56,339 nt of DNA from an uncultured bacterium (lineage in GTDB: Bacteria; Hydrothermota; UBA3072), in assembly GCA_964523975.1 (NCBI GenBank), contig CAZGBM010000003.1, forward strand, positions 1 to 56,339. The letters are read 5' to 3'. Each line of letters begins with the position of its first letter. The stretch's first letter is position 1. This document shows positions 172-56,339 of this stretch, piece by piece. The notes below the pieces were generated by a model. It saw only the letters and a list, made by a program, of their open reading frames with translations, ran no database searches and was not told where the DNA came from. The position numbers were made by a program, and so were the translations under genes.

Positions 172-217
172 ATTTGGTGTGTTTCGTGGTTTAATATTTT
201 TCCACATCTTCGTGGCT
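172..217. repeat. Orphan repeat arms of the AACCAC/AGCCAC family
   Basis: atttggtgtgtttcgtggtt (172-191) and tcttcgtggct (207-217) end in the same GTGGTT/GTGGCT termini as the arms at 16960 and 40515. Confidence 0.45.
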
Positions 218-220
218 AGT

Positions 221-3200
221 TTAAAAATCAACTCTTACTCCTAAATTCAAAAACCTCGGGTTGGTATAGTATAAATATTTAAAATCAGGTTTATTTATAT
301 AAACCTTATTGACTTCTCCTACTTTATCATTTCCTCCGATTAGAAGAGTATCAGAGGCGTATCTTTCCTCTTCATACATTGGTAGATGAAGAGAACGCAG
401 ATATTCTATCTTATCCGTGTTTGCGGAATCGGACCTGAAGCAATTGTCGCCGGTCATGTATTTCGAGCCAAACAGATTGTTTACTTCGGCGTAAAGACTG
501 AATTTAAAACCGCGTAACGAGACATCTTTACAGAGGAGCAAATTCCAGTAACCCTCATCCTGCCATTTGAGATTGTTTATGTAGTCCGGGTCGTCGGGCG
601 AAAGAGGGTCCGGCGCAAGAGGGTCGAAACTGAAATAATCGCCGCCAGTTCTGGTATAAAGAATACTGCCGGAAATATTCTTCGCTATCTTTCCCCAATC
701 GTCGGCAGTATAAAAAGTAAGGAGAAGGCAAAGAGTCCCTTTTGGTCCTATCTCGATTTCCTCGAATCCTTCTCCCCGGTATGCGCCCGTATTGAAGTCA
801 TATGACAAAAAGCCTTTAAAAAGTTTGCCGTATCTTTTTCGTAGAGAAATTTCAAATCCTTCTATATTGCCGTAAGCGTTGTTCGTGTAGGTCGTATAAG
901 AAATCTCCCCGTTATCATCATAATCTGTCTCTCCTGTCTGGTAATCATAATTGTTGTAATAACCTGAAACGTGAAACAAATACCGGTCGAAGAAACTCAT
1001 TTCGAAACCCAGTTCATAAGAAATTCTTACAGGTAAGTCCATTTGAGGATTGCCCAGGTATCCGGTCGAGTCCGAATAATCATTAAATAAACCAAAAAGT
1101 CTTTCGGTTTCGGGCAGTAAGTAAAAATACCCAAAGTTGAAGTAAATTTTGCCGGATTCGCCAAGTAAAGAAGATACGCCCAGTCGAGGGCTTATTTTCC
1201 ATTCGACGTCATTCCTTCCCGAATTGTAATAATCCAGTCTTAACCCGAATTTAGTGTAAGCGTTTTCAAAAGAAAATTTATCCTGCACATAAAGCCCGGC
1301 CCGGAAAAGTTCTGCTTCCCAGTCGGCAACATTCATGAGTTCTCCCGTTCCTCCGGAGATATAATTGGACGAATTCGAATATATCCTGTCATGATTGATT
1401 TGGAGCCCGGTTTCGAGCTGATGGCGGGAAGAGACTTGCGAAGTTGCCTCAACGCTGAAGTTGATGGTGTTGACCCAGGAGGCGTCCTGCACTATCCTTC
1501 CGAAGTTACTGAACACAAAATCGGAAGGTAGCAAGTCCCGATAATAACAATAATTGCCGGGGAAACTTTCATAGCCGAATGGTGTTTCTCTCGGTATCGC
1601 TATATTTCCGAAGTATATAAGGTCAGTCGTATCTCTGTAATTTTCGGGGAAATCCGGTTCTTCCCATACCGGGGTCGTTAAGTATCTCGACCGCGAATAA
1701 GAAAGCCTTAAATTATAAAATGTAGATGGACTTAGAGAATGGCTAAAATCCAGACCCCATAAGTATCTTCTTATATCATAAGGATTAAGAGCGTCCACCC
1801 AGTACATAAAATCCTTTTCTGCAACATTTTCAAGTATATTACCGCTACCTGCCCAGATTCTGCCGTTCGGGTATATTTCCCGTGAGTCTCTGGTGACGGT
1901 TTCTATGGTTTCGAATATTCCTTTTATATTGAGTTTTACTTCGGGTTTTAAGCGAAACGTTATTTTCCAGTCTGTTTTATTGTCGACGTAATTTTCTCTC
2001 GTAACGGGAAGAGAGAAAGGCTCTATGTTCCTTACATTAGAGACAAAAAAAGTTATATTGTTTATCCCCGGGAAAGGGCCCCCGAAGCCGAAATCAAACA
2101 TATACCCGGGTTTATCCCCATAAGTTCCAGGTATCTGACCAAGAGCCTCGCTCTCTTCTACCCTGTAGATATACATAAATAAATCTCTCCACTCCTCGGG
2201 TGTAAGGGTATCTCCTTCGGATTCTCTCTCTCTGGAATACTGAATCCAGCCGTCGAATTCCTCGTAATCATCTTCTTCCTCCGGCAGTACTGTTGTACCA
2301 TTCCAGCAGAGACTGTCCGTTGTATCGACGAACGGACGAATGTGGACGTTATCCCGGCTGAAAATTCCATTGCCTTCGTGCGGCATGTGAGGAAGAGTGT
2401 ATCGAAAATTAGCTGAACCATGATAAGAATCTCTCCTTCCTTCTTTTTCTATTATGTTGATTATACCTGAACTTGCATTGCCATACGCGGCATCGAACCA
2501 TCCGTCAAGCACGACGACATTATCGACGGCAGACAAAGGGGGAGACAATATCGATGTATTTATTCTGTTGTCAGATATAGGGAACCCATCGGTTACAAAC
2601 ACATTCTGCGGGGATTTTCTTTCCCTGTAGCCTAAATCCGCCATTCTATGAAAAGCAAGATAATCTTCAAGGCTGGCAACTAAAGGGATTTCATTTATTT
2701 CTTCGATAGTTGAATAATAGTTTCTTGAAGAGATATCCGTTTTGATAATTTCTTTTTCCGCTTCCAGGGTCACATCTCTGCCCTTAACCGTTCTGGGAGC
2801 GAATAGTTTAAGATTCAGGACGGTATTGTGGTCTGTTTCGACGGTAACACTTTTTACGGTCAGGGGCAGGTACCCGATTCCCCTGGCTTGAATCTCATAG
2901 GTTCCGGGAGAAACATTGTTAATATGGTATGACCCGTCTTTTCTGGAATCTACACCTAAACTTGTTCCTACAACTATTATGTTAACTTCTGACAGAAGTT
3001 TACCCGTTTTAGCATCAACAACTGTGCCTTCGATTTGTCCTTTAATACTTGCTGAAGACTTTAAAGAAAAAACAAAGAGAAAAAAAACTATAATGGGACG
3101 CAGATGAACACAGATTAAGAAAGGATTTTTGTTTATTTGTCTGCCCTCGTACCCGGTACCGGAAACTCGGTGCCTGAAATATTTTTCCCATCTACGATAT

Positions 3201-3226
3201 TTTAATTTTACCAAATAACCAATCAA
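221..3226 (-). CDS. TonB-dependent outer membrane receptor with N-terminal carboxypeptidase-regulatory-like domain
   Basis: GQIEGTVVDAKTG...GTYEIQARGIGY N-domain, plug motif GWFDAAYGNASSGIINII, barrel motifs ISPRLGVS and YELGF, C-terminal Phe. True start is probably downstream of 3226. Confidence 0.9.
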   Translation of the reverse strand: MIGYLVKLKYRRWEKYFRHRVSGTGYEGRQINKNPFLICVHLRPIIVFFLFVFSLKSSASIKGQIEGTVVDAKTGKLLSEVNIIVVGTSLGVDSRKDGSYHINNVSPGTYEIQARGIGYLPLTVKSVTVETDHNTVLNLKLFAPRTVKGRDVTLEAEKEIIKTDISSRNYYSTIEEINEIPLVASLEDYLAFHRMADLGYRERKSPQNVFVTDGFPISDNRINTSILSPPLSAVDNVVVLDGWFDAAYGNASSGIINIIEKEGRRDSYHGSANFRYTLPHMPHEGNGIFSRDNVHIRPFVDTTDSLCWNGTTVLPEEEDDYEEFDGWIQYSRERESEGDTLTPEEWRDLFMYIYRVEESEALGQIPGTYGDKPGYMFDFGFGGPFPGINNITFFVSNVRNIEPFSLPVTRENYVDNKTDWKITFRLKPEVKLNIKGIFETIETVTRDSREIYPNGRIWAGSGNILENVAEKDFMYWVDALNPYDIRRYLWGLDFSHSLSPSTFYNLRLSYSRSRYLTTPVWEEPDFPENYRDTTDLIYFGNIAIPRETPFGYESFPGNYCYYRDLLPSDFVFSNFGRIVQDASWVNTINFSVEATSQVSSRHQLETGLQINHDRIYSNSSNYISGGTGELMNVADWEAELFRAGLYVQDKFSFENAYTKFGLRLDYYNSGRNDVEWKISPRLGVSSLLGESGKIYFNFGYFYLLPETERLFGLFNDYSDSTGYLGNPQMDLPVRISYELGFEMSFFDRYLFHVSGYYNNYDYQTGETDYDDNGEISYTTYTNNAYGNIEGFEISLRKRYGKLFKGFLSYDFNTGAYRGEGFEEIEIGPKGTLCLLLTFYTADDWGKIAKNISGSILYTRTGGDYFSFDPLAPDPLSPDDPDYINNLKWQDEGYWNLLLCKDVSLRGFKFSLYAEVNNLFGSKYMTGDNCFRSDSANTDKIEYLRSLHLPMYEEERYASDTLLIGGNDKVGEVNKVYINKPDFKYLYYTNPRFLNLGVRVDF
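3095..3116. repeat. Orphan 9-bp-period repeat arm (gacgcagat gaacacagatt)
   Basis: Same CACAGAT unit as the arms around the GxxExxY gene. Confidence 0.45.
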
Positions 3227-3250
3227 CTAATTCGCTGATATACTATAAAC

Positions 3251-3529
3251 CTAATCCGATTCTATCTCTATTGCGTTTTTCGGACACGAGGCGACACACG
3301 CCTGACATTCAATGCACCCCGGCATATCGAATTTCAGCACAAGTTTAGAAGAATCATTAGAGTCAACTTCTTTATAGTATTTATCAAGCTCTTTCTTATT
3401 CGTGACCTCATTGTCAACAGGTTTACACCATCTTCCGCTCTTGCTACCTTCTAAGATTTCTACCGGGCAGGCATCCGCACAAGCAGCAAGACCCGTGCAT
3501 TTACTATAATCGTATATAACCTTAGGCAT
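3251..3529 (-). CDS. Dicluster-type ferredoxin
   Basis: CTGLAACADACP and CIECQACVASCP motifs; GGAGG RBS. Confidence 0.85.
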   Translation of the reverse strand: MPKVIYDYSKCTGLAACADACPVEILEGSKSGRWCKPVDNEVTNKKELDKYYKEVDSNDSSKLVLKFDMPGCIECQACVASCPKNAIEIESD

Positions 3530-3718
3530 TGAAACCTCCTTCCTTCGACTGAAAAATTAATAAGCTGATTCAATCTTTTGTCAAGGGGGAGCGGAGCTAA
3601 AACGGGCTGAATGTTAAAAGTAAACGATAAAGTGAAATTGGAAGTCATATTATCGGTGTTGACTAATAGTTATATATAGCCATTTGATAAGATAAAAATT
3701 CGTCTTAAAAAAATAGTT

Positions 3719-3753
3719 AGGGGGCAATATCATATTGTTGAGTGTTGCCCCCT
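3719..3753. terminator. Probable intrinsic terminator, possibly bidirectional
   Basis: Perfect 9-bp stem agggggcaa/ttgccccct with A/T tracts on both sides, just downstream of the lipoprotein gene. Confidence 0.5.
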
Positions 3754-3772
3754 GTAATTTTTTTTCGTCGGT

Positions 3773-3991: not shown

Positions 3992-4023
3992 GGAACCTCC
4001 TTTTCCTTGTGTGTTAGCTGAAA

Positions 4024-4696: not shown

Positions 4697-4699
4697 CGT

Positions 4700-5786: not shown

Positions 5787-7127
5787 ATGAAAAAAATCCT
5801 TATCGCGAACCGGGGAGAAATAGCGCTCCGGATAATAAGAGCAGCCAAAGACTTAGATCTCAAAACTGTAGCAGTTTTCTCGGAAGTCGATAATGATTCC
5901 CTCCATGTGAGGTTTGCAGATGAATCGGTCTGTATAGGAGGAGCTCCGCCTTCCGAGAGTTATCTGAATATACCCCGTATCATCGCGGCCGCGGAAATTA
6001 CCGGAGCAGATGCCATTCATCCCGGATACGGATTTCTGGCAGAAAACCCTTCCTTTGCGGAGGCGTGTGAAGACAATAAATTCACATTTATCGGACCTTC
6101 CTCCGGAGTCATAAAAAAAATGGGGGACAAAGCCGAAGCAAAAAAATTTATGAAAGATGCAGGAGTGCCGGTAACCCCCGGTAGCGACGGAATCATAAAC
6201 ACTGAGGAAGAAGCCCTTTCCGTTGCCGGTAAGGTTGGTTATCCTGTACTCGTAAAAGCTGTTGCCGGTGGAGGAGGGCGAGGGATGCGACTGGCAAAAA
6301 ACGAATTGGAACTTAAAACGGGTTTTTTAATGGCGCAATCGGAATCTCAAGCTACATTCGGAGATAAGAGATTGTATGTGGAAAAGGCTATTGAAAATCC
6401 ACGCCACATAGAAATACAGATTATAGCCGATTCTTTCGGAAACGTCATACATCTTGGCGAAAGAGAATGTTCTATCCAGAGAAGACATCAAAAATTGGTC
6501 GAAGAAGCTCCGTCTCCGGCTGTGGATAAAAAACTCCGGGAAAAAATGGGAGAGGCAGCTAAAAAAGGGGTGAAGGAATTAGGTTATAAATCTGCAGGAA
6601 CTATTGAATTTATAGTTGACGAAAAAGGGACTTTTTATTTTATGGAAATGAATACGCGCATACAGGTCGAGCATCCGGTGACCGAAATGACGACAGATAT
6701 CGATATCTTGACGGAGCAGATTAAAATCGCAAATGGAACGCCTCTTGAGATTAAGGATCAGAGTAAAATACAAATAAGAGGACATGCCATGGAAGCTCGC
6801 ATCAATGCAGAAGACCCATCCGCCTCTTTCTCGCCGAGACCCGGAACGATACATGCCCTGCATCTGCCAGGAGGTGCAGGAATACGAATAGATTCTCACA
6901 TTTACCAGGGTTATAAAATTCCTCCCAATTACGATTCTCTTCTCCTTAAATTGATTACCTATGGAAAAAACAGAGAGCAAAGCAGGAAAAGAATGCTTAG
7001 GGCTCTAAACGAATTTGTGATAAGAGGAGTTCCTACGACTATACCCGTGCATAAAGAGATTTTTAATCATCCTGATTTCATTCAAGGCAATATAAATACA
7101 AACTTTCTGAAGAGACTTGGATATTAA
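5787..7127 (+). CDS. accC: Acetyl-CoA carboxylase biotin carboxylase
   Basis: [56 protein letters not shown]; start moved to the ATG at 5787. Confidence 0.97.
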
Positions 7128-7136
7128 AGTTAAAAC

Positions 7137-7730
7137 ATGGCTGTAATTAAATATGCATCAAAAGAAATTGTCTGTAAAATTGTTTATTATGGACCCGGTA
7201 GGGCAGGGAAGACTACCAATGTGAAATATATTTTCTCGCGCATCCCGGAGCAAAGAAAGTCTGATATTATCTCAATGGCAACCAAACAGGATAGGACTCT
7301 TTTCTTCGACTTTATGCCTGTAGAATTAGGTGCTTTTAAGGGCTTCAATACAAGGCTCCAGATCTATACCGTCCCCGGTCAGGTAATCTACGATTCTACC
7401 AGAAGGCTGGTTTTAAGGGGAGCTGACGGAGTGGTTTTCGTAGCCGACTCGCTAAGAAGCAGAATGGAAGACAATATATGGAGCTGGGAAAACATGATTG
7501 AAAACTTGACGGAGAATAATATTAATATTAAAGAAATCCCGATAATTTTAGAGTACAACAAAAGAGATTTAGACGATATCGCACCTATGGAAGAACTGGA
7601 GGATGAGTTGAATCCTGATAATTATCTTTCTTTCCCTTCTATTGCTACCACAGGAGAAGGAATTATTGAAGTGTTTAAGACTATAGGTACGGAAGTATTG
7701 AAAAACGTAAAAAGTAAACTCGGAAATTAA
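7137..7730 (+). CDS. mglA: MglA-family small Ras-like GTPase
   Basis: KIVYYGPGRAGKTTN, DRTLFFDF, YTVPGQV, GADGVVFVADS, NKRDL. Confidence 0.88.
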   Translation: MAVIKYASKEIVCKIVYYGPGRAGKTTNVKYIFSRIPEQRKSDIISMATKQDRTLFFDFMPVELGAFKGFNTRLQIYTVPGQVIYDSTRRLVLRGADGVVFVADSLRSRMEDNIWSWENMIENLTENNINIKEIPIILEYNKRDLDDIAPMEELEDELNPDNYLSFPSIATTGEGIIEVFKTIGTEVLKNVKSKLGN

Positions 7731-7732
7731 AT

Positions 7733-8917
7733 TTGGAAAAAATAATTTATTCAAGGTTCAACGTAGAAGTTATCAAAGCCATAAAGAAAGCTCTTTCTTC
7801 AAAAGAAGTTAATCCTCTTTTTATATATGGACCGTCAGGTTCAGGCAAAACATTCCTGGTCCAAAATATGCGGGAAGAATTTAAGGGTACTTCTGCCGTC
7901 ATTAAAGCGGAAGAGATTGATTCATCGCTCTTAGAAAAATACTTGAAAAACGATTTACTAATAATTGAGGATCTTCAATTGGTGAGACCTTCAAGAAATG
8001 TGATAGATACTCTGTTTAATATACTTGAACACTTTACAAAGACGGGCACCAAACAGATAACGTTTACATCCGATCGCCATCCGGGAGGATTAAATCTGCA
8101 AAACCGTATAATATCCCGGATTGAAAGCGGAGTTACCGTTCCGATAAAGGTGTTTGATTCTGTTTCGAAGAGGATCGTCATAGAAACGCTCGGGAAAGGA
8201 TTATCCGATAATTTTTTAAAAAAACTTCAGAAATTGGACATAAAAACGATGAGCCAGGCGATCGGAGCTATAAGGAAAGTAAGGGTTCTCGGATACGTTC
8301 CGGACGAAAAAGACAGGATGGAGGAGGCAGATAAAAAGAAAAAAGAAGAGGAAAAGAAAAAGGAAGAAGTAAAGAAGCAAGCCGGGGAATTTGAAAAGTT
8401 CATTCAGGATGTCAAAAGAGGTTTTCCGGAAAAGTTGGTTGAGACAGAAAAAGCGGAAATTCTCAGGGATGAATATCGCGCTAAGATGTTCGTCTGGAAA
8501 ATGAAAGGTTTTAATACAGATAGGATAAAAAAAGTCATAGACGGTAATTTGGACCTGTTAACAGGAGAATTCGTATCTTACACAACAGATATACAGAGGC
8601 TGATAGAACTACAGAAAAGATATGGTATGTTAACTACGGACAATCTAATAAAGGGTTCTATACTGTCGGAAGAAGAAAACAAAGAAGTAGAAAAGGCGCT
8701 TTTCAATCCGGATAAAGTTGAGTGGCTGGCAAAAACAATTGAAAAACTCGAAGAAGAAGAGGATAAACTTGCAGAAAAGGCCCGTAAGAAACTTGAAGTC
8801 ACAGGGAAAAAATTAATACCGGATGAGGAAATTTCGAAAGAAAAAATAAAAAATTTGAATAAAGTATTATCAATAAAGTTGCAGGACGAAAGTTTCAGGC
8901 TTATAGAGGATTTTTAA
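7733..8917 (+). CDS. DnaA/Hda-like AAA+ ATPase with an unrelated C-terminal domain
   Basis: PLFIYGPSGSGKT Walker A, LLIIEDLQ Walker B, TSDRHP sensor, RIISRIESG; no recognisable DnaA domain IV; TTG start. Confidence 0.7.
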   Translation: MEKIIYSRFNVEVIKAIKKALSSKEVNPLFIYGPSGSGKTFLVQNMREEFKGTSAVIKAEEIDSSLLEKYLKNDLLIIEDLQLVRPSRNVIDTLFNILEHFTKTGTKQITFTSDRHPGGLNLQNRIISRIESGVTVPIKVFDSVSKRIVIETLGKGLSDNFLKKLQKLDIKTMSQAIGAIRKVRVLGYVPDEKDRMEEADKKKKEEEKKKEEVKKQAGEFEKFIQDVKRGFPEKLVETEKAEILRDEYRAKMFVWKMKGFNTDRIKKVIDGNLDLLTGEFVSYTTDIQRLIELQKRYGMLTTDNLIKGSILSEEENKEVEKALFNPDKVEWLAKTIEKLEEEEDKLAEKARKKLEVTGKKLIPDEEISKEKIKNLNKVLSIKLQDESFRLIEDF

Positions 8918-16687: not shown

Positions 16688-16960
16688 CAAAATGCAAAAA
16701 TCAAATATTAAAATGAAAAATGACAAATCAAAATTTAAAAAAAATCAAACCACGAGATTCCACAAGATTAACACCAGATTTTTGGTTTCGTTTCCCCATC
16801 CCCAAAACCCATAAAATTAGCCACGGATTAACACGGATGTACACCCTTGTACGGTCGTTTCTCTCTACAGGGCAGGCAGATATGAAAAAGTTTTTTGAAT
16901 TAACTACAATAAAAGATGGTTGGGAAGGGAATCCGTGATTATCGGTGCAGATCTGTGGCT
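16688..16960. repeat. Cluster of short-tandem-repeat arms including an inverted pair
   Basis: 7-mer array caaaatg/caaaaat/caaatat (16688-16740); aaccacgagattccacaagatt (16748-16780); agccacggattaacacggat (16819-16844) inverted to atccgtgattatcggtgcagatctgtggct (16931-16960). Confidence 0.7.
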
Positions 16961-16980
16961 AATAAAAATATAGGTTTACC

Positions 16981-17433: not shown

Positions 17434-17462
17434 AACCACAAAGTACACAGAGGAACACAAAG
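17434..17462. repeat. Orphan repeat arm
   Basis: aaccacaaag tacacagag gaacacaaag, 9-10 bp period starting with AACCAC. Confidence 0.55.
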
Positions 17463-17537
17463 AATTCGGTAACGGGGAGCCAGAAGTTAAAATTCCTAAA
17501 ACTTTGAAATTTTTGGTTTGGCAAAAGGAAATAAACT

Positions 17538-22403: not shown

Positions 22404-23332
22404 ATATTGAAATAAAGATAAAAAATAAGGCTAAGAAAATAGGATTCAACCTTGTAGGGATAACCGACCTGGAACCTTCCATTTATCAAAAGGAATATAG
22501 AAATTCTGTACAAAAAGACATGTATGGTGGTTTTGAATATTTGAGGGAAACAGAAAAAGAAAGACTTTTCCCCAAGGTGAAGTTTCCCTGGGCGAGGAGC
22601 GTTGTGGTTCTGGGGTTAAATTACTGGCAGGGGAATTTTCCTCCACTTGAACCAGGAGAAGTCCGTATATCAAGATATGCTCTGGCTAGAGATTATCATA
22701 GCGTTATCGGCGAAAAATTATTTCTTCTTTCGAAATTTATTGAGGAGCAAACCGGAACAAAAAAAATAAAATATTATACGGATACGGGAACCCTTCTCGA
22801 AAAGGAGTTTGCCCAGAGAGCGGGTCTCGGGTGGATAGGTAAAAACACAATATTAATAACGGAAGAATTCGGGTCCTGGGTATTTCTGGGAGAGATACTT
22901 CTCGACATTGAACTAAAATCCGACGAAGAAAAGGACAACAAATGTAAAGACTGCGATATTTGTATCTCTTCCTGTCCGAGTAATGCTTTTCTCAGACCAT
23001 ATTCTTTGAATGCCGAAAAATGCACTGCGTACCATACTATCAATAAAAAAAACGGGTTGCCGAACTGGTTTCCTTCTCCTTCGAATGAGTACATATTCGG
23101 CTGTGATATATGCCAGGAAGTATGTCCTTTCAACAGTAATGCGAAAGCGACCAGAACAAAAGATTTCTTTCCCGATGAAAGAAAGATAAATCCTTCTCTC
23201 AGGTACCTTGAATCTCTATCAGAAGAAGATTTTGAAAGTTTGTTCGATAACACTTCAATTGGTTGGGCGGGGAGAGACGTACTGCTCAGGAACCTAAACG
23301 CTTTTAGAAAACAAAAAACCTTTTTGTATTAA
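22400..23332 (+). CDS. queG: Epoxyqueuosine reductase
   Basis: ISRYA..RDYH, AGLGWIGKN, GSWVFLGE, CKDCDICISSCP, GCDICQEVCPFN. Confidence 0.93.
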   Translation: MNIEIKIKNKAKKIGFNLVGITDLEPSIYQKEYRNSVQKDMYGGFEYLRETEKERLFPKVKFPWARSVVVLGLNYWQGNFPPLEPGEVRISRYALARDYHSVIGEKLFLLSKFIEEQTGTKKIKYYTDTGTLLEKEFAQRAGLGWIGKNTILITEEFGSWVFLGEILLDIELKSDEEKDNKCKDCDICISSCPSNAFLRPYSLNAEKCTAYHTINKKNGLPNWFPSPSNEYIFGCDICQEVCPFNSNAKATRTKDFFPDERKINPSLRYLESLSEEDFESLFDNTSIGWAGRDVLLRNLNAFRKQKTFLY

Positions 23333-23340
23333 CAATCGAT

Positions 23341-23628
23341 TGAAATTAAATATCAAAAATTAAAAAGCGAAATGATTTAGTACGCTATCAGCCATCCTGT
23401 TTCTGCTTTCCGCTAAACTCAACCCCACACACCATTTTTTAACATGTAGAAAATGTAGAACCTGTAGTTTTTTGTTTTTAATTCTATATGGACTACATGA
23501 CCTACATGTGCAATTTTTTTTGTTTTTTATGCGGTTAGCCGTAAGCGGTAAGCCGAAAGCGATTTATTGATATTTGATTTTTTAAATTCAGTGGCTTTGC
23601 CACTTGGCGTTCTTTGCATCTCTGCGGT
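23341..23628. repeat. Nested inverted tandem-repeat arrays (A-B-C-C'-B'-A') plus a trailing arm
   Basis: 9-mer catgtagaa x3 vs ctacatg x3; 7-mer tttccgc array vs gcggtaa array; AT-rich 7-mer aaatatc vs gatattt; trailing cttggcgttctttgcatctctgcggt. Confidence 0.75.
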
Positions 23629-23643
23629 CAATCACGGTTCAAC

Positions 23644-40081: not shown

Positions 40082-40515
40082 AACCACAGATTCCACAGAT
40101 TTTCACAAGATTTTTCTTTTTATTTCTAAACTTTTCGTGCCAAAATTGAGCAGCAAACCAATACGCATTCTAGTCGCTTTAAGATAATTCAGCAATTGAG
40201 CTTCATCAATCTCAGTTAAAGCCTGCGTTGCCTTTACTTCAACAATAATTTTATCCTCTATTAAAATATCAGGTATGTATTTCCTATGAATAATTAGATC
40301 TTTATAGTAAACATCAATATCTTTCTGTCTTTCGAAAGAAATATTTCTTAATTTCAACTCATGATATAAGGCCTCCTGATATACATATTCCAAAAAACCA
40401 CAACCCAATTCTCGGTGAACTTCTATTGCTGCCCCTATTATTTTCTCTGTTAAATCCCTATATAACCAATTAATATTATTTTTTTTCTGTGTTAATCTCG
40501 TGTAATCTCGTGGTT
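40082..40515. mobile_element. Putative cassette: GxxExxY gene bounded by inverted tandem-repeat arms
   Basis: Left arm aaccacagattccacagattttcacaaga (40082-40110), right arm tctgtgttaatctcgtgtaatctcgtggtt (40486-40515); interrupts wzm-wzt adjacency. Mobility is inferred, not shown. Confidence 0.55.
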
Positions 40516-40519
40516 CCAT
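40103..40519 (-). CDS. GxxExxY protein (PD-(D/E)XK nuclease superfamily)
   Basis: GFLEYVY motif, PDILIEDKIIVEVKA, AQLLNYLKAT, GLLLNFG; ATG at 40519. Confidence 0.93.
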   Translation of the reverse strand: MEPRDYTRLTQKKNNINWLYRDLTEKIIGAAIEVHRELGCGFLEYVYQEALYHELKLRNISFERQKDIDVYYKDLIIHRKYIPDILIEDKIIVEVKATQALTEIDEAQLLNYLKATRMRIGLLLNFGTKSLEIKRKIL

Positions 40520-43887: not shown

Positions 43888-45054
43888 TTACGAATTTGCA
43901 ATCTTATTTCCAAAGAAAGTTTTTATCGAATCACACACATATTCAATCTCTTCTTCTGTTAATTCGGGAAAAATCGGTAATGAAAGAACCTCATCGGCAG
44001 CCTCTTCGGAAAGCGGGAGATCGCCTTTCTTATAACCAAGAGAAATAAAACATTCCTGCAAATGTAAAGGTAAAGGATAATATATCTTGCTCCCAATGCC
44101 TTTTTCCGACAGAAAGTTCATCAATTCCTCTCTTTTATTATTCTTGACACGAATTGTGTACTGATGAAAGATATGCGTGCATTCTCCCGCAGCATAAGGA
44201 CAGTCTATTTCGTCGATATCTTTCAATATATCAGAATAAAGCGCCGCGTTTTCTTTCCTCTTCTTATTCCAATCATCAAGGTATGGCAATTGTGCGAGAA
44301 GAATAGCTGCCTGAAGCGTATCTAATCTGCTGTTATACCCTACTGATAAATGATGATAGTCTTTTTCGGAGCCATGGATCCTCATTTTTTTTAACTCAAC
44401 TGCAAGCTCTTCCCTTGCGGTAGTGATAATTCCTCCGTCTCCGTAAGCTCCTAAATTTTTAGTCGGGAAAAAAGAAAAACAGCCGAGTGCTCCTATAGAA
44501 CCCGCTTTTTTATCTTTATATTCCGCTCCGATAGCCTGACATGCATCCTCAATTACATTTAAGTTGTATTCTTTTGCAATCTCGACAATTGAATCCATAT
44601 CAGCCATCTGTCCGTATAAATGTATGGGTATTATCGCCTTTACCTTCGATAAATTGACCCGTAGTCTGGCAATATGAAATGTTTTTCCCTCTAATAATTC
44701 TTTTATTTTTTCGGGATCTATGTTAAATGTATCCGGCTTAATATCGACGAAAATCGGCGTAGCTCCAACATTATGAATAGCTCCTGCCGTCGAAAAGAAA
44801 GTAAAAGGAGTGGTTATTACAAAATCTCCTATTCCAACTCCTAAATTTCTTAAACTCAGCAAAAGCGCGTCAGTCCCGGAAGCAACAGCAATCGCATACT
44901 CTGTATTGCAATAGTCGGAGATTTCTGATTCTAACTGTCTTACCTCTTCTCCGAGAATGAAATGCTGAGAATTTAAAACATTTTCGATAGCTTTATCGAT
45001 TTCTCCTTTTATCAAATCATAGCGGCGTTTCAAATCTAACAAAGGGACTTCCAC
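43888..45054 (-). CDS. DegT/DnrJ/EryC1/StrS aminotransferase (WbpE-like)
   Basis: ASGTDAL, IEDACQAIG, SFFPTKNLGAYGDGG, NSRLDTLQAA. Confidence 0.94.
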   Translation of the reverse strand: MEVPLLDLKRRYDLIKGEIDKAIENVLNSQHFILGEEVRQLESEISDYCNTEYAIAVASGTDALLLSLRNLGVGIGDFVITTPFTFFSTAGAIHNVGATPIFVDIKPDTFNIDPEKIKELLEGKTFHIARLRVNLSKVKAIIPIHLYGQMADMDSIVEIAKEYNLNVIEDACQAIGAEYKDKKAGSIGALGCFSFFPTKNLGAYGDGGIITTAREELAVELKKMRIHGSEKDYHHLSVGYNSRLDTLQAAILLAQLPYLDDWNKKRKENAALYSDILKDIDEIDCPYAAGECTHIFHQYTIRVKNNKREELMNFLSEKGIGSKIYYPLPLHLQECFISLGYKKGDLPLSEEAADEVLSLPIFPELTEEEIEYVCDSIKTFFGNKIANS

Positions 45055-50921: not shown

Positions 50922-52372
50922 ATTTCCTCGATTTTTAATATATAACCCATACAGAGAAAAATCAAGCCAAAAACCGCAGTTCCCGTAATAAAAGACAAAA
51001 AACAATCATGGATTCTTTGGCTATAAATAGCCGCAATAAAAGCTATAGAAGAAACCAGTATTATACGTATAAAAAATGAACGTAAATCTCTCAAGATTTT
51101 CCAATACGGTCTAACAAGCAAAATAAACTGAACCAAACCTGAAAGAGATACAGCAAGAGCCAATCCTCTGGCTTGTAAAGTATTGAGGAGGAATATGGCT
51201 AAAACAACATTGATTAAGAGAGCAATATAGCTTATTCTCATTGGAGTTTTTGTATTCTTTTGTGAAAAATATACGTTTATTATTACTTGATTACCTGAAA
51301 TAAAAGGTATTCCCAGAATATAAAAAAGAAGAATAGAAGCGGTTCGGACTGAATCCTGCAGGGTAAATGCTCCATGTTCATAGAGAATACGAATTGCGGA
51401 CATGCGGACCGTAATGAGTAAAAAAACCGAGGGAATGGAAAGGAGAAAAACAGTTCGGATAGACGACAATATATAGGGGTATTGGTCAAGTTTTTGGGCC
51501 GCTTTTCTTGAAAGTTCGGGAAGGGTAACTGCAGCAACCGCTACCCCGAACATTCCCAGGGGAAGCTGCATTACCCTGTATGCATAACTCAGATGAGAGA
51601 TGTTACCGGCGGGAAGTAAAGAAGCAAGAAAAAGAGTAACGCTCACATTTATTTTGCTGGCGGCAAAGGCAAAAAAAACAGGAATGACAAGACAAAGAGA
51701 TTGTTTTACTCCCGGGTGACCCCACTCGGGTTTCTTTAATCTTATCCCGGCTTTTGGAAGAAAGAAAAGCAAAAATATTAATTGCACTCCACCGCCGACG
51801 AGAACTCCTACGGCTGCTCCGAAGATTCCTAAATTTCTGTATAATAAAAAAGAACATATAATAACAGCAAGATTAAAGAAAACAGTATAAATTCCGGTTA
51901 TAAAAAAGCGGTCAAAATATATAAGGATACCCATAACCACAGAAGCAAATGAAATTAGCATCAAAAATGGGAACATCAATCTTGTAAGCTTGACGGCAAC
52001 TTCAAACTGTAGAGGGTCCCTGGTAAAACCTCTTGCCAGAAGCGAAACTATTTGAGGAGAGAATATAATACCCAGAGATACTATAATAGAAAGCACTATA
52101 ATCAGAGGTAAGAGAAAAGAAGACAAATATCTATTGGCACTTTCTTCTCCTTCTCTGGTGCGGTACTCCGAAAAAATCGGCACAAAAGCGGCGTTCATAC
52201 TACCTTCTCCAAAAAAGTCTCTTAAAAGATTGGGAATATTAAAGGCTATCCGGAAAGCGTCCATAAAGGCAGAAGAACCGAAAAGGTAAGCGAAAACCAC
52301 CTCTCGTCCCATTCCTGTTATTCTTGAAATTAGAGTCCCGATGCTGAATCCGCCGACTTTTTTCAATTTCAT
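50888..52372 (-). CDS. murJ: Lipid II flippase MurJ
   Basis: SRITGMGRE, DAFRIAFNIPNLLRDFFGEG, QLPLGMFG. Confidence 0.93.
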   Translation of the reverse strand: MKLKKVGGFSIGTLISRITGMGREVVFAYLFGSSAFMDAFRIAFNIPNLLRDFFGEGSMNAAFVPIFSEYRTREGEESANRYLSSFLLPLIIVLSIIVSLGIIFSPQIVSLLARGFTRDPLQFEVAVKLTRLMFPFLMLISFASVVMGILIYFDRFFITGIYTVFFNLAVIICSFLLYRNLGIFGAAVGVLVGGGVQLIFLLFFLPKAGIRLKKPEWGHPGVKQSLCLVIPVFFAFAASKINVSVTLFLASLLPAGNISHLSYAYRVMQLPLGMFGVAVAAVTLPELSRKAAQKLDQYPYILSSIRTVFLLSIPSVFLLITVRMSAIRILYEHGAFTLQDSVRTASILLFYILGIPFISGNQVIINVYFSQKNTKTPMRISYIALLINVVLAIFLLNTLQARGLALAVSLSGLVQFILLVRPYWKILRDLRSFFIRIILVSSIAFIAAIYSQRIHDCFLSFITGTAVFGLIFLCMGYILKIEEICRLTEIIKKR

Positions 52373-52382
52373 AGAACTAAAG

Positions 52383-52858
52383 GGATCAAGGGGTCAAGGG
52401 TTCGAGGGTTCAAGGGTTAGAATCCTTTTTCTCCAGAGATTTAATAAGAGCCTTCAGCATCCTCTCAACTTCCCTTGCGTTTTCCAGAAGCTTATCTTTG
52501 TTTTCTTGAGTCATATAATCTAAATCATACGATAAAAGAAGTTGAGTTTTCAATTCGCAATACGAACCATAAGCTACATACAGAAACCTTATATACTCTT
52601 TAATTGTTCCTCTCCCATAACCTTCTGCAATATTAGAAGGAATAGAAATAGATGAACGCCTTATTTGAGAAGTTAAACAGTATGTTTCTTCTTTGGGAAA
52701 ACTACTGGTTACTTTATAAATACTAATACATAATTTATATGCTTTTTGCCATACTTTTAAGTCCATATAATTCTTCAACATAATATGCCAGAACTTTGAA
52801 TCTTTAAAATTTTCTTGAAGCTTTCTTCCTCGACCCCTCGACTCCTTGGTCCCTTAAC
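52383..52858. mobile_element. Putative cassette: four-helix-bundle gene bounded by inverted 8-bp tandem-repeat arms
   Basis: ggatcaag gggtcaag ggttcgag ggttcaag (52383-52414) vs cctcgacc cctcgact ccttggtc ccttaac (52828-52858). Mobility is inferred. Confidence 0.55.
52410..52781 (-). CDS. Four helix bundle protein (23S rRNA IVP / TIGR02436-like family)
   Basis: DLKVWQKA, FPKEETYCLTSQIRRSSISIPSNIAEGYGR, GSYCELKTQL. Confidence 0.93.
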   Translation of the reverse strand: MLKNYMDLKVWQKAYKLCISIYKVTSSFPKEETYCLTSQIRRSSISIPSNIAEGYGRGTIKEYIRFLYVAYGSYCELKTQLLLSYDLDYMTQENKDKLLENAREVERMLKALIKSLEKKDSNP

Positions 52859-52903
52859 TTTCTTCTTCCTAACTTGGGATGTGGTAATGTTGGAAGGGTA
52901 GTA

Positions 52904-52978
52904 TCGGGGCGAGTGGATTCGAACCACCGACCTCCTGCTCCCGAAGCAGGCGCGCTAACCAGGCTGCGCTACGCCCCG
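52904..52978 (-). tRNA. tRNA-Pro(CGG), CCA not encoded
   Basis: CGGGGCG/CGCCCCG acceptor stem, anticodon arm CCTGC-TTCGGGA-GCAGG, T-loop GGTTCGAATCC. Confidence 0.96.
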
Positions 52979-53589: not shown

Positions 53590-53611
53590 TGCTTCACGCT
53601 GAAACTCGTAG

Positions 53612-54355: not shown

Positions 54356-55020
54356 AACATACGCATAACAAGTTTAATAAATCTTGGAGTATCAATAAAC
54401 GGATTTATATGACTTTTGAATTTTTCGAAATATATGGTACAGATTGGTAACTCCTTTATGGAAAATCCCGCCCTCGCCGCTTTGATGATTATCTCGGTTT
54501 CCATCTGGAAACGATTGGTCATCAGATTGATTTCCTTAAGTAATTTTTTCTTTATGATGCGGAACCCCGATTGGCTGTCATGGATTCTCACTCCTGATAG
54601 AATTGAAGTGACAAGTGAGGACGTATTGTTCGCAAAAAACCGTAAAAAAGGCATGTCGGACAAATTATGTTTTCTCGTCCCGACAATCAAATCGGCTCCG
54701 CTTTCCCTAAATTTTTCGAGAAACCTCGGTATTTCACCCGGGTCATGCTGCCCATCCCCGTCCATAGTTATAACGGCATCATATCCGTTTTTAATGGTGA
54801 AATCAAATCCCGCTCTAAGAGCTAAACCTTTCCCCTGATTACTCCTAAGACTCAGCACCTTTGTTCCGGATTTCTTTGCGATAAGCGAGGTTTTGTCTTT
54901 AGAACCATCATCCACAACAAGAACGTTTTTAAGAGAAAAGACAGAAGATACTTTTTTAAGTAAGTTTCCTATGTTCTTTTCTTCATTAAAAGCCGGTATT
55001 ACTATTAATATTTTATTCAT
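54346..55020 (-). CDS. GT2 glycosyltransferase (polyprenol-phosphate mannose synthase-like)
   Basis: IPAFNEE, VVDDGSKD, MDGDGQHDP, DSQSGFR. Confidence 0.9.
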   Translation of the reverse strand: MNKILIVIPAFNEEKNIGNLLKKVSSVFSLKNVLVVDDGSKDKTSLIAKKSGTKVLSLRSNQGKGLALRAGFDFTIKNGYDAVITMDGDGQHDPGEIPRFLEKFRESGADLIVGTRKHNLSDMPFLRFFANNTSSLVTSILSGVRIHDSQSGFRIIKKKLLKEINLMTNRFQMETEIIIKAARAGFSIKELPICTIYFEKFKSHINPFIDTPRFIKLVMRMLWR

Positions 55021-55850
55021 AACCGGTCAAACAAAAGCCATTGTTCGGGATATTTCTCAATATATCTCTCCAGTATCTCAACATATCTTTTAATGCCCAA
55101 CTCAATTTCTCCTTCTGTGATCTTGAACGGTTTTTCAAAATAAACATGATAAAAATTATCCTTCTCTCTTAAACAGAAACCTGGGACAACAGGTGCTCCC
55201 AATTTCGAAGCTAGGAAAAACGCACCTCTTGGAATCTCTACATCTTTATCAAACATTTTAACTGTCACAGTAGAACCCTCAAAACTTCTATCTCCGGCAA
55301 TTGATAGAACCCCTCCATTTTTCAAAAATCTAACCGGTCCAGAAAAACTTCTTCGTACATAAAAAACACCGATGCCCGCTCTCTTTCGATTAAATTCATA
55401 AAGATCTCTTATAAATTCAGTTTTATATTCTACCGAAATAACGGCAACGGAAAATCCATTATAACTCATAAGAGAAGCACCCCATTCGTAATTACCCAGA
55501 TGACCTGTCAAAATTATAACTCCCTTCCCTTCCTTATGTGCATCAAAAAGATTATGAATGTTTTCCGCTTTCAAAAACTTATGATAATTTCGCTTGTTCA
55601 AAACTCTACCCATAATGAGCTGTTCATAAAGACAAATGGAAAGATTGATACCGGCTTTTTTTGAAATTTGCAGGAGCTCCTGTTCGCTTTTGTCTTTGAA
55701 AACACTTTTGAGATTAGAAAGGTGGTTACGGACCCCCCTCTTATATGTAAAAGTATATGAAAAACGCGCGGAACCTCTGGCAATAAGGTCGCCTATCCCT
55801 TTGGGTAGAAAACTCGCTAAAAATTTCAAAAACAAAAACAGGAAATTCAT
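55017..55850 (-). CDS. Lysophospholipid / lipid A-type (LpxL-like) acyltransferase
   Basis: TGHLGNYEWGA (HxxxxE), GDR, YPEQWLLF. Confidence 0.85.
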   Translation of the reverse strand: MNFLFLFLKFLASFLPKGIGDLIARGSARFSYTFTYKRGVRNHLSNLKSVFKDKSEQELLQISKKAGINLSICLYEQLIMGRVLNKRNYHKFLKAENIHNLFDAHKEGKGVIILTGHLGNYEWGASLMSYNGFSVAVISVEYKTEFIRDLYEFNRKRAGIGVFYVRRSFSGPVRFLKNGGVLSIAGDRSFEGSTVTVKMFDKDVEIPRGAFFLASKLGAPVVPGFCLREKDNFYHVYFEKPFKITEGEIELGIKRYVEILERYIEKYPEQWLLFDRL

Positions 55851-55891
55851 TTAAAAGAGCAAATATTCCCCTCTTTAAAATATTTTTAAAA

Positions 55892-55966
55892 TCGGGGCGA
55901 GTGGACTTGAACCACCGACCTCCAGCACCCCAAGCTGGCGCGCTAACCAGGCTGCGCTACGCCCCG
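55892..55966 (-). tRNA. tRNA-Pro(GGG), CCA not encoded
   Basis: Same body as the CGG tRNA; anticodon arm CCAGC-TTGGGGT-GCTGG; T-loop GGTTCAAGTCC. Confidence 0.96.
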
Positions 55967-55974
55967 TTATCTTG

Positions 55975-56002
55975 AATATAGTAAAAAAGACCCTATTTGC
56001 AA
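55975..56002 (-). promoter_or_regulatory. Putative promoter of tRNA-Pro(GGG)
   Basis: TTGCAA-16 nt-TATATT, 8 nt before the tRNA 5' end. Confidence 0.55.
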
Positions 56003-56014
56003 GGGGGAATTAAG

Positions 56015-56339
56015 ATGGCAACCACGAGATTACGAAGATTACCAAAAGACTACCCCACGACACCAAAAATTAATATCACACAGAGGCACCCGATACGGTC
56101 ATTCTTTCCTACGGGGCAGGTCCAGTGGAATAGAAGTTGCTGCATGATGTACTACTATTCCACAGGGCAGGCAGAGAACACAGAGAAAAAAATATAGTGT
56201 TGCTTAAAACCCATCCCACAACACCAAATTAATCTCACAAAAAGCCACAGAGACACAAAGAAAAAACTTTTTTATTTTACCAATTAACTAATATAATAAT
56301 TAACCAATCAACTGATTAGAAGAATTCACGAATTCAAAT
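56015..56339. repeat. Cluster of degenerate repeat arms
   Basis: atggcaaccacgagattac (near-identical to the GxxExxY 5' end), cagggcaggcaga (also at 16868-16880), agccacagagacacaaag, 8-mer ccaattaa/ccaatcaa array. Confidence 0.6.

Follow-up and report, generated by a model that had tools for sequence, protein, structure and literature searches.

The window analyzed here (56,339 nucleotides [nt] of contig CAZGBM010000003.1 from an uncultured Hydrothermota bacterium with a WOR-3-like genome) carries two small genes, each set between arms of short tandem units, and because the same design surrounds relatives of these genes in bacteria and archaea as well as classic 23S rRNA intervening sequences (IVSs), it looks like a widespread mobile-element type, for which we found no description in the literature. 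Each cassette consists of one promoter-less gene of ~120 to 140 codons, coding for either a four-helix-bundle (4HB) protein or a GxxExxY nuclease, and of two mutually reverse-complementary arms, each comprising 3 to 5 tandem units of 7 to 10 nt and sometimes many more. Cassettes are co-directional with their neighbors and occupy the few bases that separate a stop codon from the following start codon; others adjoin tRNA genes or interrupt 23S rRNA. An orthologous junction can be filled, empty or occupied by a different cassette; gene and arms have moved jointly from host to host, also across the divide between bacteria and archaea; arm type follows cargo clade; and palindromes that share the arms but have no cargo occur alongside. 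We lean toward regarding the cassettes as small selfish DNA elements of IVS-type design, moved by cargo-arm recognition and tolerated by looping out.

The first cargo gene (52410..52781, minus strand) encodes a 123-aa, Avd-like protein of the S23p/23S rRNA IVS protein family, matching TIGR02436 (E = 2e-40), PF05635 (E = 1e-40) and PDB entry 2GSC (E = 4e-20). It has no catalytic motif, a point against the explanation favored above, in which it would move DNA. Its 3' arm (52375..52419, minus strand) holds about five 8-nt units of sense-strand GAACCCTT type, recovered by TRF as a AAGGGTTC array at 52380-52418 (period 8, 4.9 copies), and its outer end comes within 3 to 6 nt of the start codon of murJ (52372). 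The 5' arm (52828..52860, minus strand; sense strand AAGGGACCAAGGAGTCGAGGGGTCGAGG), in which TRF detected the complementary CCTCGACC array at 52828-52846, lies downstream of the tRNA-Pro(CGG) gene (52904-52978). The two arms (52375-52407 and 52828-52860) are 82% complementary over 33 nt and form the strongest inverted repeat of its kind in the window, with a flank score of 36 versus ≤25 for other ORFs (170 scored). Moreover, both the minimum-free-energy (MFE) and the centroid folds predict pairing between the arms (z = -3.46), and the unit type seen at 52828-52860 recurs in another organism (L132), around a 68%-identical 4HB gene that occupies a different junction.

The second cargo gene (40103..40519, minus strand) encodes a 138-aa GxxExxY protein of PD-(D/E)XK nuclease fold (TIGR04256, E = 1.5e-45; PF13366, E = 4e-43). 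Residues E33, D84, E94 and K96 occupy invariant alignment columns, and the D...ExK nuclease motif is intact; the predicted structure (low confidence, pLDDT 61) weakly matches restriction-endonuclease-like folds. The 3' arm (40082..40112, minus strand; AACCACAGATTCCACAGATTTTCACAAGATT), whose three units read AACCACAGATT CCACAGATT TTCACAAGATT on the plus strand, includes the stop codon of the cargo gene and terminates 4 nt short of the start codon of the ABC-ATPase gene (40077). The 5' arm (40487..40515, minus strand), the reverse complement of AACCACGAGATTACACGAGATTAACACAG with sense strand AACCACGAGATT ACACGAGATT AACACAG, begins 2 nt past the cargo ATG, so that it is translated as residues 2 to 11; the ATG itself follows the ABC-permease stop codon by 2 nt. 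Pairing of these arms requires one-base gaps (score 25), and their fold is modest (z = -1.57; 7/100 shuffles fold equally well), with the arms again paired in the predicted MFE and centroid structures. Thus, the claim of the first-pass annotation that two unrelated small genes are bracketed by inverted tandem arms of 8- to 10-nt units holds for both cassettes, its proposal that the arms loop out the cargo agrees with the predicted pairing in both, and a long RNA stem formed by the arms is plausible, with stem mismatches giving no sign of an RNA-strand wobble bias (39 G-U vs 48 A-C).

One-base bulges are conserved among type-A GxxExxY arms, a feature that would also suit integron-type gene cassettes with attC-like arms, in which small promoter-less ORFs are flanked by imperfect palindromes that could fold single-stranded. 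We give this reading next to no weight, as the arms stand at both ends rather than as a single 3' attC, the cassettes are single and scattered in operons rather than arrayed by an intI gene, and no integrase was found among the scanned window ORFs. More specifically, profile families identified no transposase or integrase in 49 of 53 selected ORFs, as had been stated at first pass, and orthologues of two further ORFs are SurE and a glycosyltransferase. The scan excluded a 277-aa ORF (55017-55850) and a 388-aa ORF (43888-45054), the latter with NCBIfam aminotransferase matches only. The label "transposase-free" given earlier may mislead, since the GxxExxY motif is intact.

Related arms without cargo occur elsewhere in the window, all of them at gene junctions. 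Arrays of at least three C-R-C..R-R-A units with 8- to 11-nt spacing were found five times (at 16751, 17437, 40085, 40483 and 56236) versus 0.015 expected from 200 shuffles, and arrays of at least two units 12 times versus 2.0 expected; likewise, the 12-mer AACCACGAGATT has the three exact copies previously reported, and five copies at ≤1 mismatch versus 0.31 expected. Between MCP and CheW genes, an AT-rich heptamer array (16689-16741) precedes an orphan 5'-type arm of three units (16748..16780, plus strand) that contains the shared 12-mer; in L008, a homologous module comes after tRNA-Pro. Beside it lies a cargo-less element (16814..16963, plus strand) with a 102-nt insert between arms of CACGGATT units (16816-16838 and 16941-16963; 78% complementary over 23 nt), predicted to fold arm-closed (z = -3.40, 0/200 shuffles). 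"Nested" copies were not confirmed in the window: the elements at 16.7 kb are side by side, and a nested or replacement remnant occurs only in the relative L111. An orphan three-unit array (AACCACAAAGTACACAGAGGAACACAAAGAA; 17434..17464, plus strand) separates CheW from the next gene, and the convergent QueG/O-antigen-ligase spacer contains a cargo-less palindrome of 9-nt units of ACATGTAG type (23442..23509, unstranded; arms 73% complementary over 26 nt), with a predicted tandem-unit hairpin at 23438-23512 (z = -4.63, 0/200 shuffles). Upstream of tRNA-Pro(GGG), a cluster of orphan arms (56020..56262, plus strand; fold z = -2.73) comprises a 12-mer arm (56020-56048), hairpins (56085-56178) and a three-unit array (56236-56262), and may extend past the window end. 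Three other sites proposed earlier proved weak: two-unit CACGAA-type arrays between two minus-strand genes (171..217, minus strand); a two-unit CGCAGATGAACACAGATTA array directly upstream of the start of a 957-aa gene (3099..3117, plus strand); and partnerless tandem arrays (23531..23628, minus strand), namely GCGGTAA-type units (23531-23561) and the complement of CCGCAGAG/GCAAAG units (23595-23628), where the fold test of 23525-23632 gave no signal (z = -0.38).

Across other genomes, 48 of 63 metagenomic GxxExxY genes were flanked by inverted repeats scoring >25, the null maximum among ordinary genes (170 scored). The usual arm has three C-R-C-N-R-A units, 9 to 10 nt apart and of fixed polarity; a C-R-C array lay within 220 nt of 59/63 genes, clean split palindromes numbered 29, and in 40/46 cases the sense strand of the 5' arm carried the units (spacing 9 to 10 nt). 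Arm complementarity was concentrated in the core positions (80 to 99% vs 44 to 62% expected; spacer positions, 57 to 76%), and protein identity was 62% within an arm type versus 50% between types (permutation p < 0.0005). The arms are not arbitrary microsatellites: they repeat a conserved, polar core of 7 nt that varies together with the protein clade and recurs in hosts with GC contents of 0.32 to 0.63. Near GxxExxY genes, we found 21 cargo-less palindromes with the same arms; arm-to-arm gaps were bimodal (0 to 77 nt or ~360 to 420 nt), and some genes were flanked by two full hairpins. In 26/32 cases, a start codon on the same strand followed the end of the 3' arm within 22 nt, and in 16/28 the 5' arm started ≤8 nt from a same-strand stop codon; in some cassettes, arms have been absorbed into neighboring ORFs and are translated. 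Arms analogous to the GxxExxY type placed 9 of 13 4HB genes above the null, including those of Calothrix, Pseudanabaena (cas6-cas4), Geminocystis, Picosynechococcus (cmr2-cmr3) and an Azospirillum 23S IVS; the Nostoc pCC7120gamma and L008/L102 cassettes are without a complementary 3' arm. In Calothrix and Pseudanabaena, these arms are heptamer arrays of exactly the short tandemly repeated repetitive (STRR) kind, i.e., the intergenic arrays of 7-nt units in heterocystous cyanobacteria. To our knowledge, STRRs have been described without an associated gene or inverted partner, and our search on STRR heptamers returned tangential papers only; by analogy, a link between cassette arms and STRRs is a lead.

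Comparison of orthologous junctions provided evidence of turnover. In WOR-3 relatives whose flanking proteins are 75 to 83% identical, the ABC-permease/ATPase junction is empty in L007 (stop-start gap of 2 nt) and L114-L119; it carries a type-A GxxExxY cassette in the window, L002/L111 and L125, a type-B cassette (45 to 47% identical, CGCAGAG arms) in L003 and L005, and a 4HB cassette in L008/L102 and L011. In L111, an 8-nt tail of a type-B arm remains behind the type-A arm. At the tRNA-Pro/murJ junction, the 4HB cassette has an orthologue in L129/L130 and a decayed remnant in L007, with other arms or none beyond these. A near-identical GxxExxY cassette (protein 73% identical, arms nearly the same) occurs in Methanophagales archaea, where the identical cassette is found behind two distinct left flanks, divergence starting precisely at the end of the arm. 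Contigs with an identical flanking protein always shared the same junction state, so movement is rare on that timescale. Mobility of window-type cassettes, as first proposed, is thus supported at the level of sequence by filled, empty and exchanged junctions and by sharing between bacteria and archaea. That the arms are instead regulatory or insulating hairpins (terminators, RNase sites or translational couplers) arisen in situ around accessory genes would fit their positions exactly at stop/start junctions and the translation of some within neighboring ORFs; we regard this as very improbable, because the presence/absence and cross-domain data already contradict it, as do the constancy of the arm core across host GC and the L007 remnant.

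The anticipated filled and empty sites were thus seen, but without consistent target-site duplication, the only clean cases being 9 bp (L036) and 10 bp (L125). Those two direct repeats, together with one architecture around two unrelated cargo types, the excess of cargo-less palindromes and orphan arms over full copies, and the lack of a transposase among scanned window ORFs, would suit non-autonomous MITE-like elements, whose arms would be terminal inverted repeats (TIRs) recognized by an enzyme (transposase or recombinase) from another genomic locus and whose 4HB and GxxExxY genes would be passengers. Indeed, TIRs of repeated short motifs and short non-autonomous copies are features shared with MITEs and TIR transposons with subterminal repeats. 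We consider this reading unlikely, though deserving of some weight: the cassettes have no DDE or other known transposase and are strictly co-oriented with host transcription; unit type co-varies with cargo clade; unit polarity relative to the cargo gene is fixed (40/46) and such arrays stand at 59/63 GxxExxY genes; target-site duplication is not consistent; and the whole cassette crosses domains, which are unlikely to share a trans-acting enzyme.

Co-direction with host transcripts, absence of promoters and predicted arm pairing in RNA also raise an RNA route, in which the arm-closed transcript is reverse-transcribed and re-integrated. Avd is a reverse transcriptase cofactor in diversity-generating retroelements, a role that the Avd-like 4HB protein, which matches PHROG Avd (1e-11), bAvd (PF22296, E = 7e-9) and NCBIfam Avd, would take here. 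This is improbable in our estimation, given that no reverse transcriptase was found in the window or beside examined cassettes, GxxExxY cassettes contain no Avd-like protein, and stem mismatches (39 G-U, 48 A-C, 115 other) displayed no RNA-strand wobble bias.

The favored explanation, selfish cassettes moved by their cargo, has partial parallels in known systems. REPs/REPINs with RAYT are dispersed intergenic palindromes with one protein gene between inverted repeats and many cargo-less copies; RAYT is an IS200/IS605-type HUH tyrosine transposase. Our cassettes share the short intergenic palindromes, inverted flanks of one gene and numerous cargo-less copies, and some GxxExxY genes likewise lie between two full hairpins; in contrast, the protein is a PD-(D/E)XK nuclease or 4HB, the arms have at least three tandem units, and the gene is usually found inside a single split palindrome. 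Homing endonuclease genes, such as that of I-Ssp6803I (a small PD-(D/E)XK homing endonuclease in a cyanobacterial tRNA intron), resemble the cassettes in placing a small nuclease gene in a symmetric site that also exists empty, in horizontal spread, and in being tolerated since the insert is removed or, as predicted here, looped out in RNA. They differ in that the cassettes have no self-splicing intron or intein, with at most excision without religation, and that 4HB cassettes have no nuclease. The same design is seen in 23S IVSs with an S23p/4HB ORF (Leptospira, Coxiella, Alphaproteobacteria), of ~430 to 480 nt with complementary ends and a ~28- to 33-bp stem; the Azospirillum lipoferum IVS has tandem 7-nt-unit inverted arms resembling the window cassette, which upholds the kinship suggested at first pass. 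Unlike IVSs, which interrupt rRNA, the window cassettes occupy junctions of protein-coding and tRNA genes, a second unrelated cargo uses the same design, and tandem-unit arms and cargo-less copies are absent from the IVS descriptions found. IVSs are sporadically distributed, spread horizontally and are regarded as selfish, and in Coxiella, experiments have demonstrated that RNase III excises an IVS that carries a 4HB gene and has a 28-bp stem (PMC4990558).

Together, the intact D...ExK motif and the conserved, clade-covarying arm core make the GxxExxY protein a candidate mobility enzyme, and cassettes probably move via recognition of arm units by the cargo protein. In such a scheme, the arm units would be putative binding sites; the nuclease would target palindromes formed by the arms and so promote copying or insertion, either by homing into an empty palindrome or by staggered-cut insertion, and a 4HB pentamer would do the equivalent by nucleic-acid binding. 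In the transcript, pairing of the arms would then loop out the cargo, so that the upstream stop codon comes to lie beside the downstream start codon; as in 23S IVSs, the arms may in addition serve as a site for RNase III. The cassettes would be tolerated because of this pairing and looping-out, which would render insertions harmless wherever cutting without religation is tolerated, i.e., between cistrons, in tRNA spacers and in rRNA surface helices.

Two small genes of the window, which has 37% GC and densely packed genes (a chemotaxis operon, recA/recX, a large polysaccharide locus, dinG, murJ, and two tRNA-Pro genes), are each enclosed by mirror-image arrays of tandem 8-10-nt units, here called arms. 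The ORF at 52410-52781 (-), between tRNA-Pro and murJ, encodes a four-helix-bundle (4HB) protein that passes the curated cut-off of TIGR02436/PF05635 (137 bits versus a cut-off of 24; PF05635 E 1e-40) and that of NF008911 (146 versus 137 bits), and is related to PDB 2GSC (E 4e-20) and DGR Avd. The ORF at 40103-40519 (-), between ABC-permease and ABC-ATPase genes, encodes a GxxExxY protein of the PD-(D/E)XK nuclease fold (TIGR04256/PF13366; 154 bits versus a curated cut-off of 35), whose G41-E44-Y47, D84, E94, and K96 vary little or not at all among 38 relatives, D84/E94/K96 being catalytic. A PDB sequence search with the GxxExxY protein matched nothing, and its AlphaFold model (pLDDT 61) gave weak restriction-endonuclease-like matches in Foldseek, none at E <= 0.001. 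PADLOC assigned no defence family, reporting marginal Cas4-like similarity only, and a scan of viral contigs yielded no GxxExxY relatives.

More specifically, an array of AAGGGTTC (x4.9) at 52380-52418 pairs with a complementary array at 52828-52846 on the other side of the 4HB gene, and these arms are 82% complementary over 33 nt. For the GxxExxY gene, AACCACAGATT-CCACAGATT-TTCACAAGATT pairs, with one-base bulges, with the complement of AACCACGAGATT-ACACGAGATT-AACACAG. RNA duplex energy between gene flanks was uninformative as a null, as every gene came out at -30 to -50 kcal/mol owing to long interior loops, and we therefore employed a gapped local-alignment score of flank against flank. Among 170 ORFs of the window and relatives, this score had a median of 17, a 95th percentile of 22, and a highest value of 25 excluding the 4HB gene; the 4HB arms reached 36 and the GxxExxY arms 25. 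In a window-wide ungapped scan, inverted repeats were not above direct repeats (24 versus 32), so the signal is cassette-specific rather than global.

Arms without cargo are also present in the window. Arrays of the form C-R-C..R-R-A, with at least three units at 8-11-nt spacing, number five versus 0.015 expected, and all five fall at sites where the first-pass annotation had placed arms; the 12-mer that it had listed, AACCACGAGATT, indeed occurs in three exact copies. Three further sites (171-217, 3099-3117, and 23531-23628) are weak, and the ordinary intergenic regions of the window hold nothing resembling arms. In two different cargo-less elements, a ~30-nt motif, ACGGTC(G/A)TT..CT..CTAC(A/G)GGGCAGG, lies directly 3' of the C-R-C array (16852-16880 and 56096-56120, with a partial third copy at 56160-56175); it is missing from every fetched locus and possibly represents a small non-coding cargo. 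The orphan arm at 16748 is immediately preceded on its 5' side by an AT-rich heptamer array, (AAAATCA)n (16689-16741), whose unit type is unlike that of the arm and which has no inverted partner. Hairpins and orphan arms cluster most densely in a convergent spacer at about 23300-23650, where a gene-strand switch and the cumulative GC skew maximum are also located. Both tRNA-Pro genes (anticodon CGG at 52904-52978; anticodon GGG at 55892-55966) adjoin arm sequences; their backbones are nearly identical and they are separated by 3 kb. Rfam at gathering thresholds detected only these two tRNAs in the window, and no intron family.

A genome scan via DinG identified ten relatives (61-81% identity), one of which is labelled candidate division WOR-3. 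We compared the ABC junction, i.e., from permease stop to ATPase start, in relatives with flanking proteins 75-83% identical, and observed five states (L-numbers denote loci or contigs of relatives or other carriers): empty, with a stop-start gap of 1-2 nt (L007, L114-L119); a cassette with a GxxExxY gene of the window type, or type A (L002/L111, L125); another GxxExxY cassette, type B, 45-47% identical and with CGCAGAG-type arms (L003, L005); a 4HB cassette with GGGTAGAT-type arms (L008, L102-L110); and a 4HB cassette with GTTGAA-type arms (L011). At 3270-3296 of L111, the type-A 3' arm is followed by GCGGTGAT, the terminal 8 nt of the type-B arm as in L003 and L005; one cassette has thus replaced or entered another. 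The orthologous cassette occupies the tRNA-Pro/murJ junction of a closer relative (4HB 92% identical); L011 shows an empty C-R-C arm pair there, and in further relatives orphan arms accompany a conserved murJ promoter. A decayed 4HB cassette was observed at this junction in L007 (7090-7350), where approximately the last 35 codons and the 3' arm are left, with a AATTAGTA-type array in place of the 5' arm. The first-pass annotation had described full and empty copies of these cassettes, and among the orthologous sites compared at the two junctions both filled and empty ones were found. Looking up contigs with an identical flanking protein revealed no presence/absence polymorphism within populations; as the junction state was constant, turnover is slow relative to strain divergence.

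The murJ promoter is sigma70-like (CCTTGACTTTAACTT...TATTCTCT) and is conserved in relatives without the 4HB cassette (L002, L004, L005, and L008 compared). No such promoter is present in the window (52372-52904) or in L130, in which murJ starts 3-6 nt past the 3' arm; judging from this arrangement, transcription of murJ in the window probably runs through the tRNA-Pro/4HB cassette.

GxxExxY proteins 70-75% identical to that of the window occur in Methanophagales archaea and in Omnitrophica, which is about the level of identity of housekeeping proteins among the WOR-3 relatives themselves. The Methanophagales cassette has arms almost identical to those of the window (AATCACGAGATTACACAAGATTACACAG ... 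AATCTTGTGAGAATCTGTGTAATCTGGTGGTT) and unrelated neighbour genes. Similarly, a 4HB protein 68% identical to that of the window also has GGGTYSAA-type arms, at another junction in another organism. Because these close relatives of both cargoes keep their arms in new surroundings, gene and arms move as a unit. We rejected the explanation that the arms are terminators or regulatory hairpins arisen in situ, as it is contradicted by presence/absence at the junctions and by sharing between bacteria and archaea. Two Methanophagales loci, L120 and L122, are identical in the GxxExxY cassette and right flank and differ in the left flank (Fe-ADH or MoaE), with the breakpoint precisely at the outer end of the arm; the difference stems either from a second copy, from rearrangement at the arm, or from contigs joined across a repeated cassette during assembly.

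The same anatomy was found well beyond these relatives. A metagenome scan for GxxExxY returned 80 loci, of which 63 were evaluable (GC 0.32 to 0.63). The inverted-repeat score exceeded the null maximum for 48/63 genes (median 35), a C-R-C array was at most 220 nt away for 59/63, and a clean split palindrome, i.e., 5' arm, gene, 3' arm, was seen for 29/63. The typical arm consists of three units, (T/G)(C/A)C(A/G)C(N)(G/A)A(T/G)(T), at 9-10-nt spacing; in 40 of 46 cases, the 5' arm carries these units on the sense strand. The distance separating a 5'-type array from the 3'-type array that follows it is bimodal: 21 gaps are short (0-77 nt) and represent cargo-less palindromes, found in 311 kb of sequence surrounding GxxExxY genes, and 39 are gene-sized, mostly about 360-420 nt. 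Complementarity holds at variable core positions in 80-99% of units, versus 44-62% by chance, and at bases between cores in 57-76% only. GxxExxY proteins sharing an arm type are 62% identical, versus 50% for those with different arm types (p < 0.0005). Cultured carriers include Bacteroides finegoldii (radA/cassette/FAD protein), Gemmatirosa, and Treponema saccharophilum. The GxxExxY arms of L087 (1585-2259) exceed 100 nt, with an inverted-repeat score of 141.

Likewise, 9 of 13 4HB cassettes examined scored above the null, their arms consisting of 7-9-nt units, mostly purine-rich on the 5' side, and reaching 100 nt or more. Such cassettes interrupt cas6/cas4 in Pseudanabaena and cmr2/cmr3 in Picosynechococcus, and in Azospirillum lipoferum the cassette is a true intervening sequence (IVS) of 23S rRNA, with tandem arms of the GAGGACG type. 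The earlier proposal of mobile, IVS-like cassettes is thus borne out by the junction states, the sharing of gene together with arms, and the arms of the Azospirillum 23S IVS. Some 4HB arrays are long: a GGAGCRGR array extends ~170 nt before the gene in L017 (1400-1560), and AAAGCTA occurs in >16 copies before the gene between cas6 and cas4 in L095 (1280-1500). At 3830-4600 of L017, the cassette is flanked by a long direct duplication (direct-repeat score 133) of part of the host epimerase gene.

Cassettes are co-directional with their neighbour genes. The 3' arm ends at most 22 nt before a same-strand start codon in 26/32, and the 5' arm starts no further than 8 nt from a stop codon on the same strand in 16/28. 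Arms may even be translated, as the N-terminus of the cargo (window), the C-terminus of the upstream gene (L122, L132), or the N-terminus of the downstream gene (L011, L102). Across 36 cassettes, direct repeats were at control level and no consistent target-site duplication of fixed length was detected; clean direct repeats abut both cassette ends in only two. These are an exact 10-bp repeat, TAAAAATGAA, in L125 (2495-2510, 2950-2965), whose left copy provides the ATG of the cargo and right copy the ATG of the ATPase, and an exact 9-bp repeat, CCCATTTCA, in L036 (around 1976 and 2424).

Among known systems, the 23S IVS is the closest in form for the 4HB cassette: complementary borders enclose both window cassettes, with arms paired in MFE and centroid structures, and the 52.4 kb cassette contains an S23p/4HB ORF, which the 40.1 kb GxxExxY cassette does not. 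However, 23S IVSs are sited in 23S helix 25 or 45, whereas the window cassettes lie between protein or tRNA genes. The 4HB cassette works like a 23S IVS yet lacks its defining location. The GxxExxY system follows a logic akin to that of REPIN-RAYT and of homing endonucleases, but its enzyme belongs to another family and it has no intron. Like REP/REPIN palindromes, its arms are dispersed, intergenic, of the same sequence, and inverted around a gene; however, RAYTs are HUH (Y1) IS200/IS605-like transposases, whereas the cargoes match only PF13366/TIGR04256 and PF05635/TIGR02436, on which ground IS200/IS605 ends were rejected as well. Homing endonuclease genes encode nucleases that cut their own target site in its empty form; empty palindromes with GxxExxY-cassette arms exist and may be cut likewise by the cargo protein. 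Those genes reside in self-splicing introns or inteins, whereas the cassettes are free-standing ORFs between genes. TIR transposons and MITEs have a cognate transposase of a known family, and integron cassettes have a single 3' attC and are arrayed by intI/attI, whereas here arms stand on both sides of cassettes placed singly in operons, with no integrase among the window ORFs scanned. Membership in MITEs or integrons fails on the transposase, missing among those ORFs, or on the attC. CRISPR-like arrays were also considered and rejected. The first-pass annotation had read the elements as transposase-free stems; transposase and integrase Pfam/NCBIfam families are indeed missing among the window ORFs scanned, while the intact nuclease motif of GxxExxY makes both the transposase-free label and a pure-stem reading doubtful.

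At the DNA level, the arm units are putative protein-binding sites, as suggested by their conserved core separated by loose spacers, their recurrence roughly once per helical turn, their constant polarity relative to the gene, and their co-variation with cargo clade. The GxxExxY nuclease, with its motif intact, would be the natural candidate to act on arm palindromes. Homing, i.e., insertion at the centre of an empty palindrome, would fit the bimodal full and empty gaps; alternatively, insertion at a staggered cut would fit the 9-10-bp flanking repeats of L036 and L125.

At the RNA level, predicted arm pairing would loop out the cargo and bring the upstream stop beside the downstream start. 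The RNA stem that had been proposed is plausible: both cassettes are predicted to fold with arms paired around the entire cargo in MFE and centroid structures (z -3.46 for 4HB; -1.57 for GxxExxY), and cargo-less elements form arm-closed folds (16814-16963, z -3.4; 23438-23512, z -4.6), but a comparison of G-U with A-C among arm mismatches, as a test of RNA versus DNA pairing, revealed no bias of the kind that would mark selection at the RNA level. The 5' arm units of type-A GxxExxY cassettes carry one base more (CAC-G-AGATT) than the 3' arm units (AATCT-GTG); this base is kept in three bacterial lineages and an archaeal copy (window, L111, L125, L120) and would yield regularly spaced bulges if the arms fold. 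In Coxiella, RNase III cuts out a 4HB IVS with a 28-bp stem (PMC4990558), and by analogy RNase III may excise these cassettes from their transcripts. Such excision without religation would explain their confinement to cistron gaps, tRNA neighbourhoods, and rRNA helices.

What the data establish is the anatomy, distribution, and turnover of the cassettes, the joint transfer of arms with their gene, and the association of arm type with cargo clade. Beyond this, we tentatively propose, while considering it somewhat less probable than not, that 4HB and GxxExxY cassettes together form a class of minimal, autonomous mobile elements of bacteria and archaea that has gone undescribed, with one branch for each cargo. 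Such elements would be composed of a single ~120-140-aa protein and inverted arrays of the units that it binds, would spread via palindromes, and would survive through "excision without splicing" at the RNA level. The literature on both families, IVS-like elements, and STRR yielded no description of the arms or of cassettes outside rRNA, although coverage was incomplete and an earlier description is possible.

Each cargo family has 6,000-8,000 close relatives per search, and both are annotated without function; a survey of PD-(D/E)XK proteins lists the function of PF13366 as "Unknown", with multiple transfers between bacteria and archaea (PMC3424549). For annotation, arms lengthen neighbour genes or provide their start or stop codons; cassettes interrupt cas and polysaccharide operons, and arms can break metagenome assemblies. 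The origin and movement of 23S rRNA IVSs have been an open question since their discovery (PMC4990558). Our data show that a general cassette type has the IVS as one of its habitats and operon junctions as another, and that the same design is used by a nuclease family with sequence-specific arms. The question thereby becomes accessible in cultured organisms, i.e., Bacteroides finegoldii, Picosynechococcus PCC 7003, Nostoc PCC 7120, and Azospirillum lipoferum. If true, the proposed class would provide a single account of the origin of 23S rRNA IVSs, of many REP-like and STRR-like intergenic repeats, and of the function of two very large protein families.
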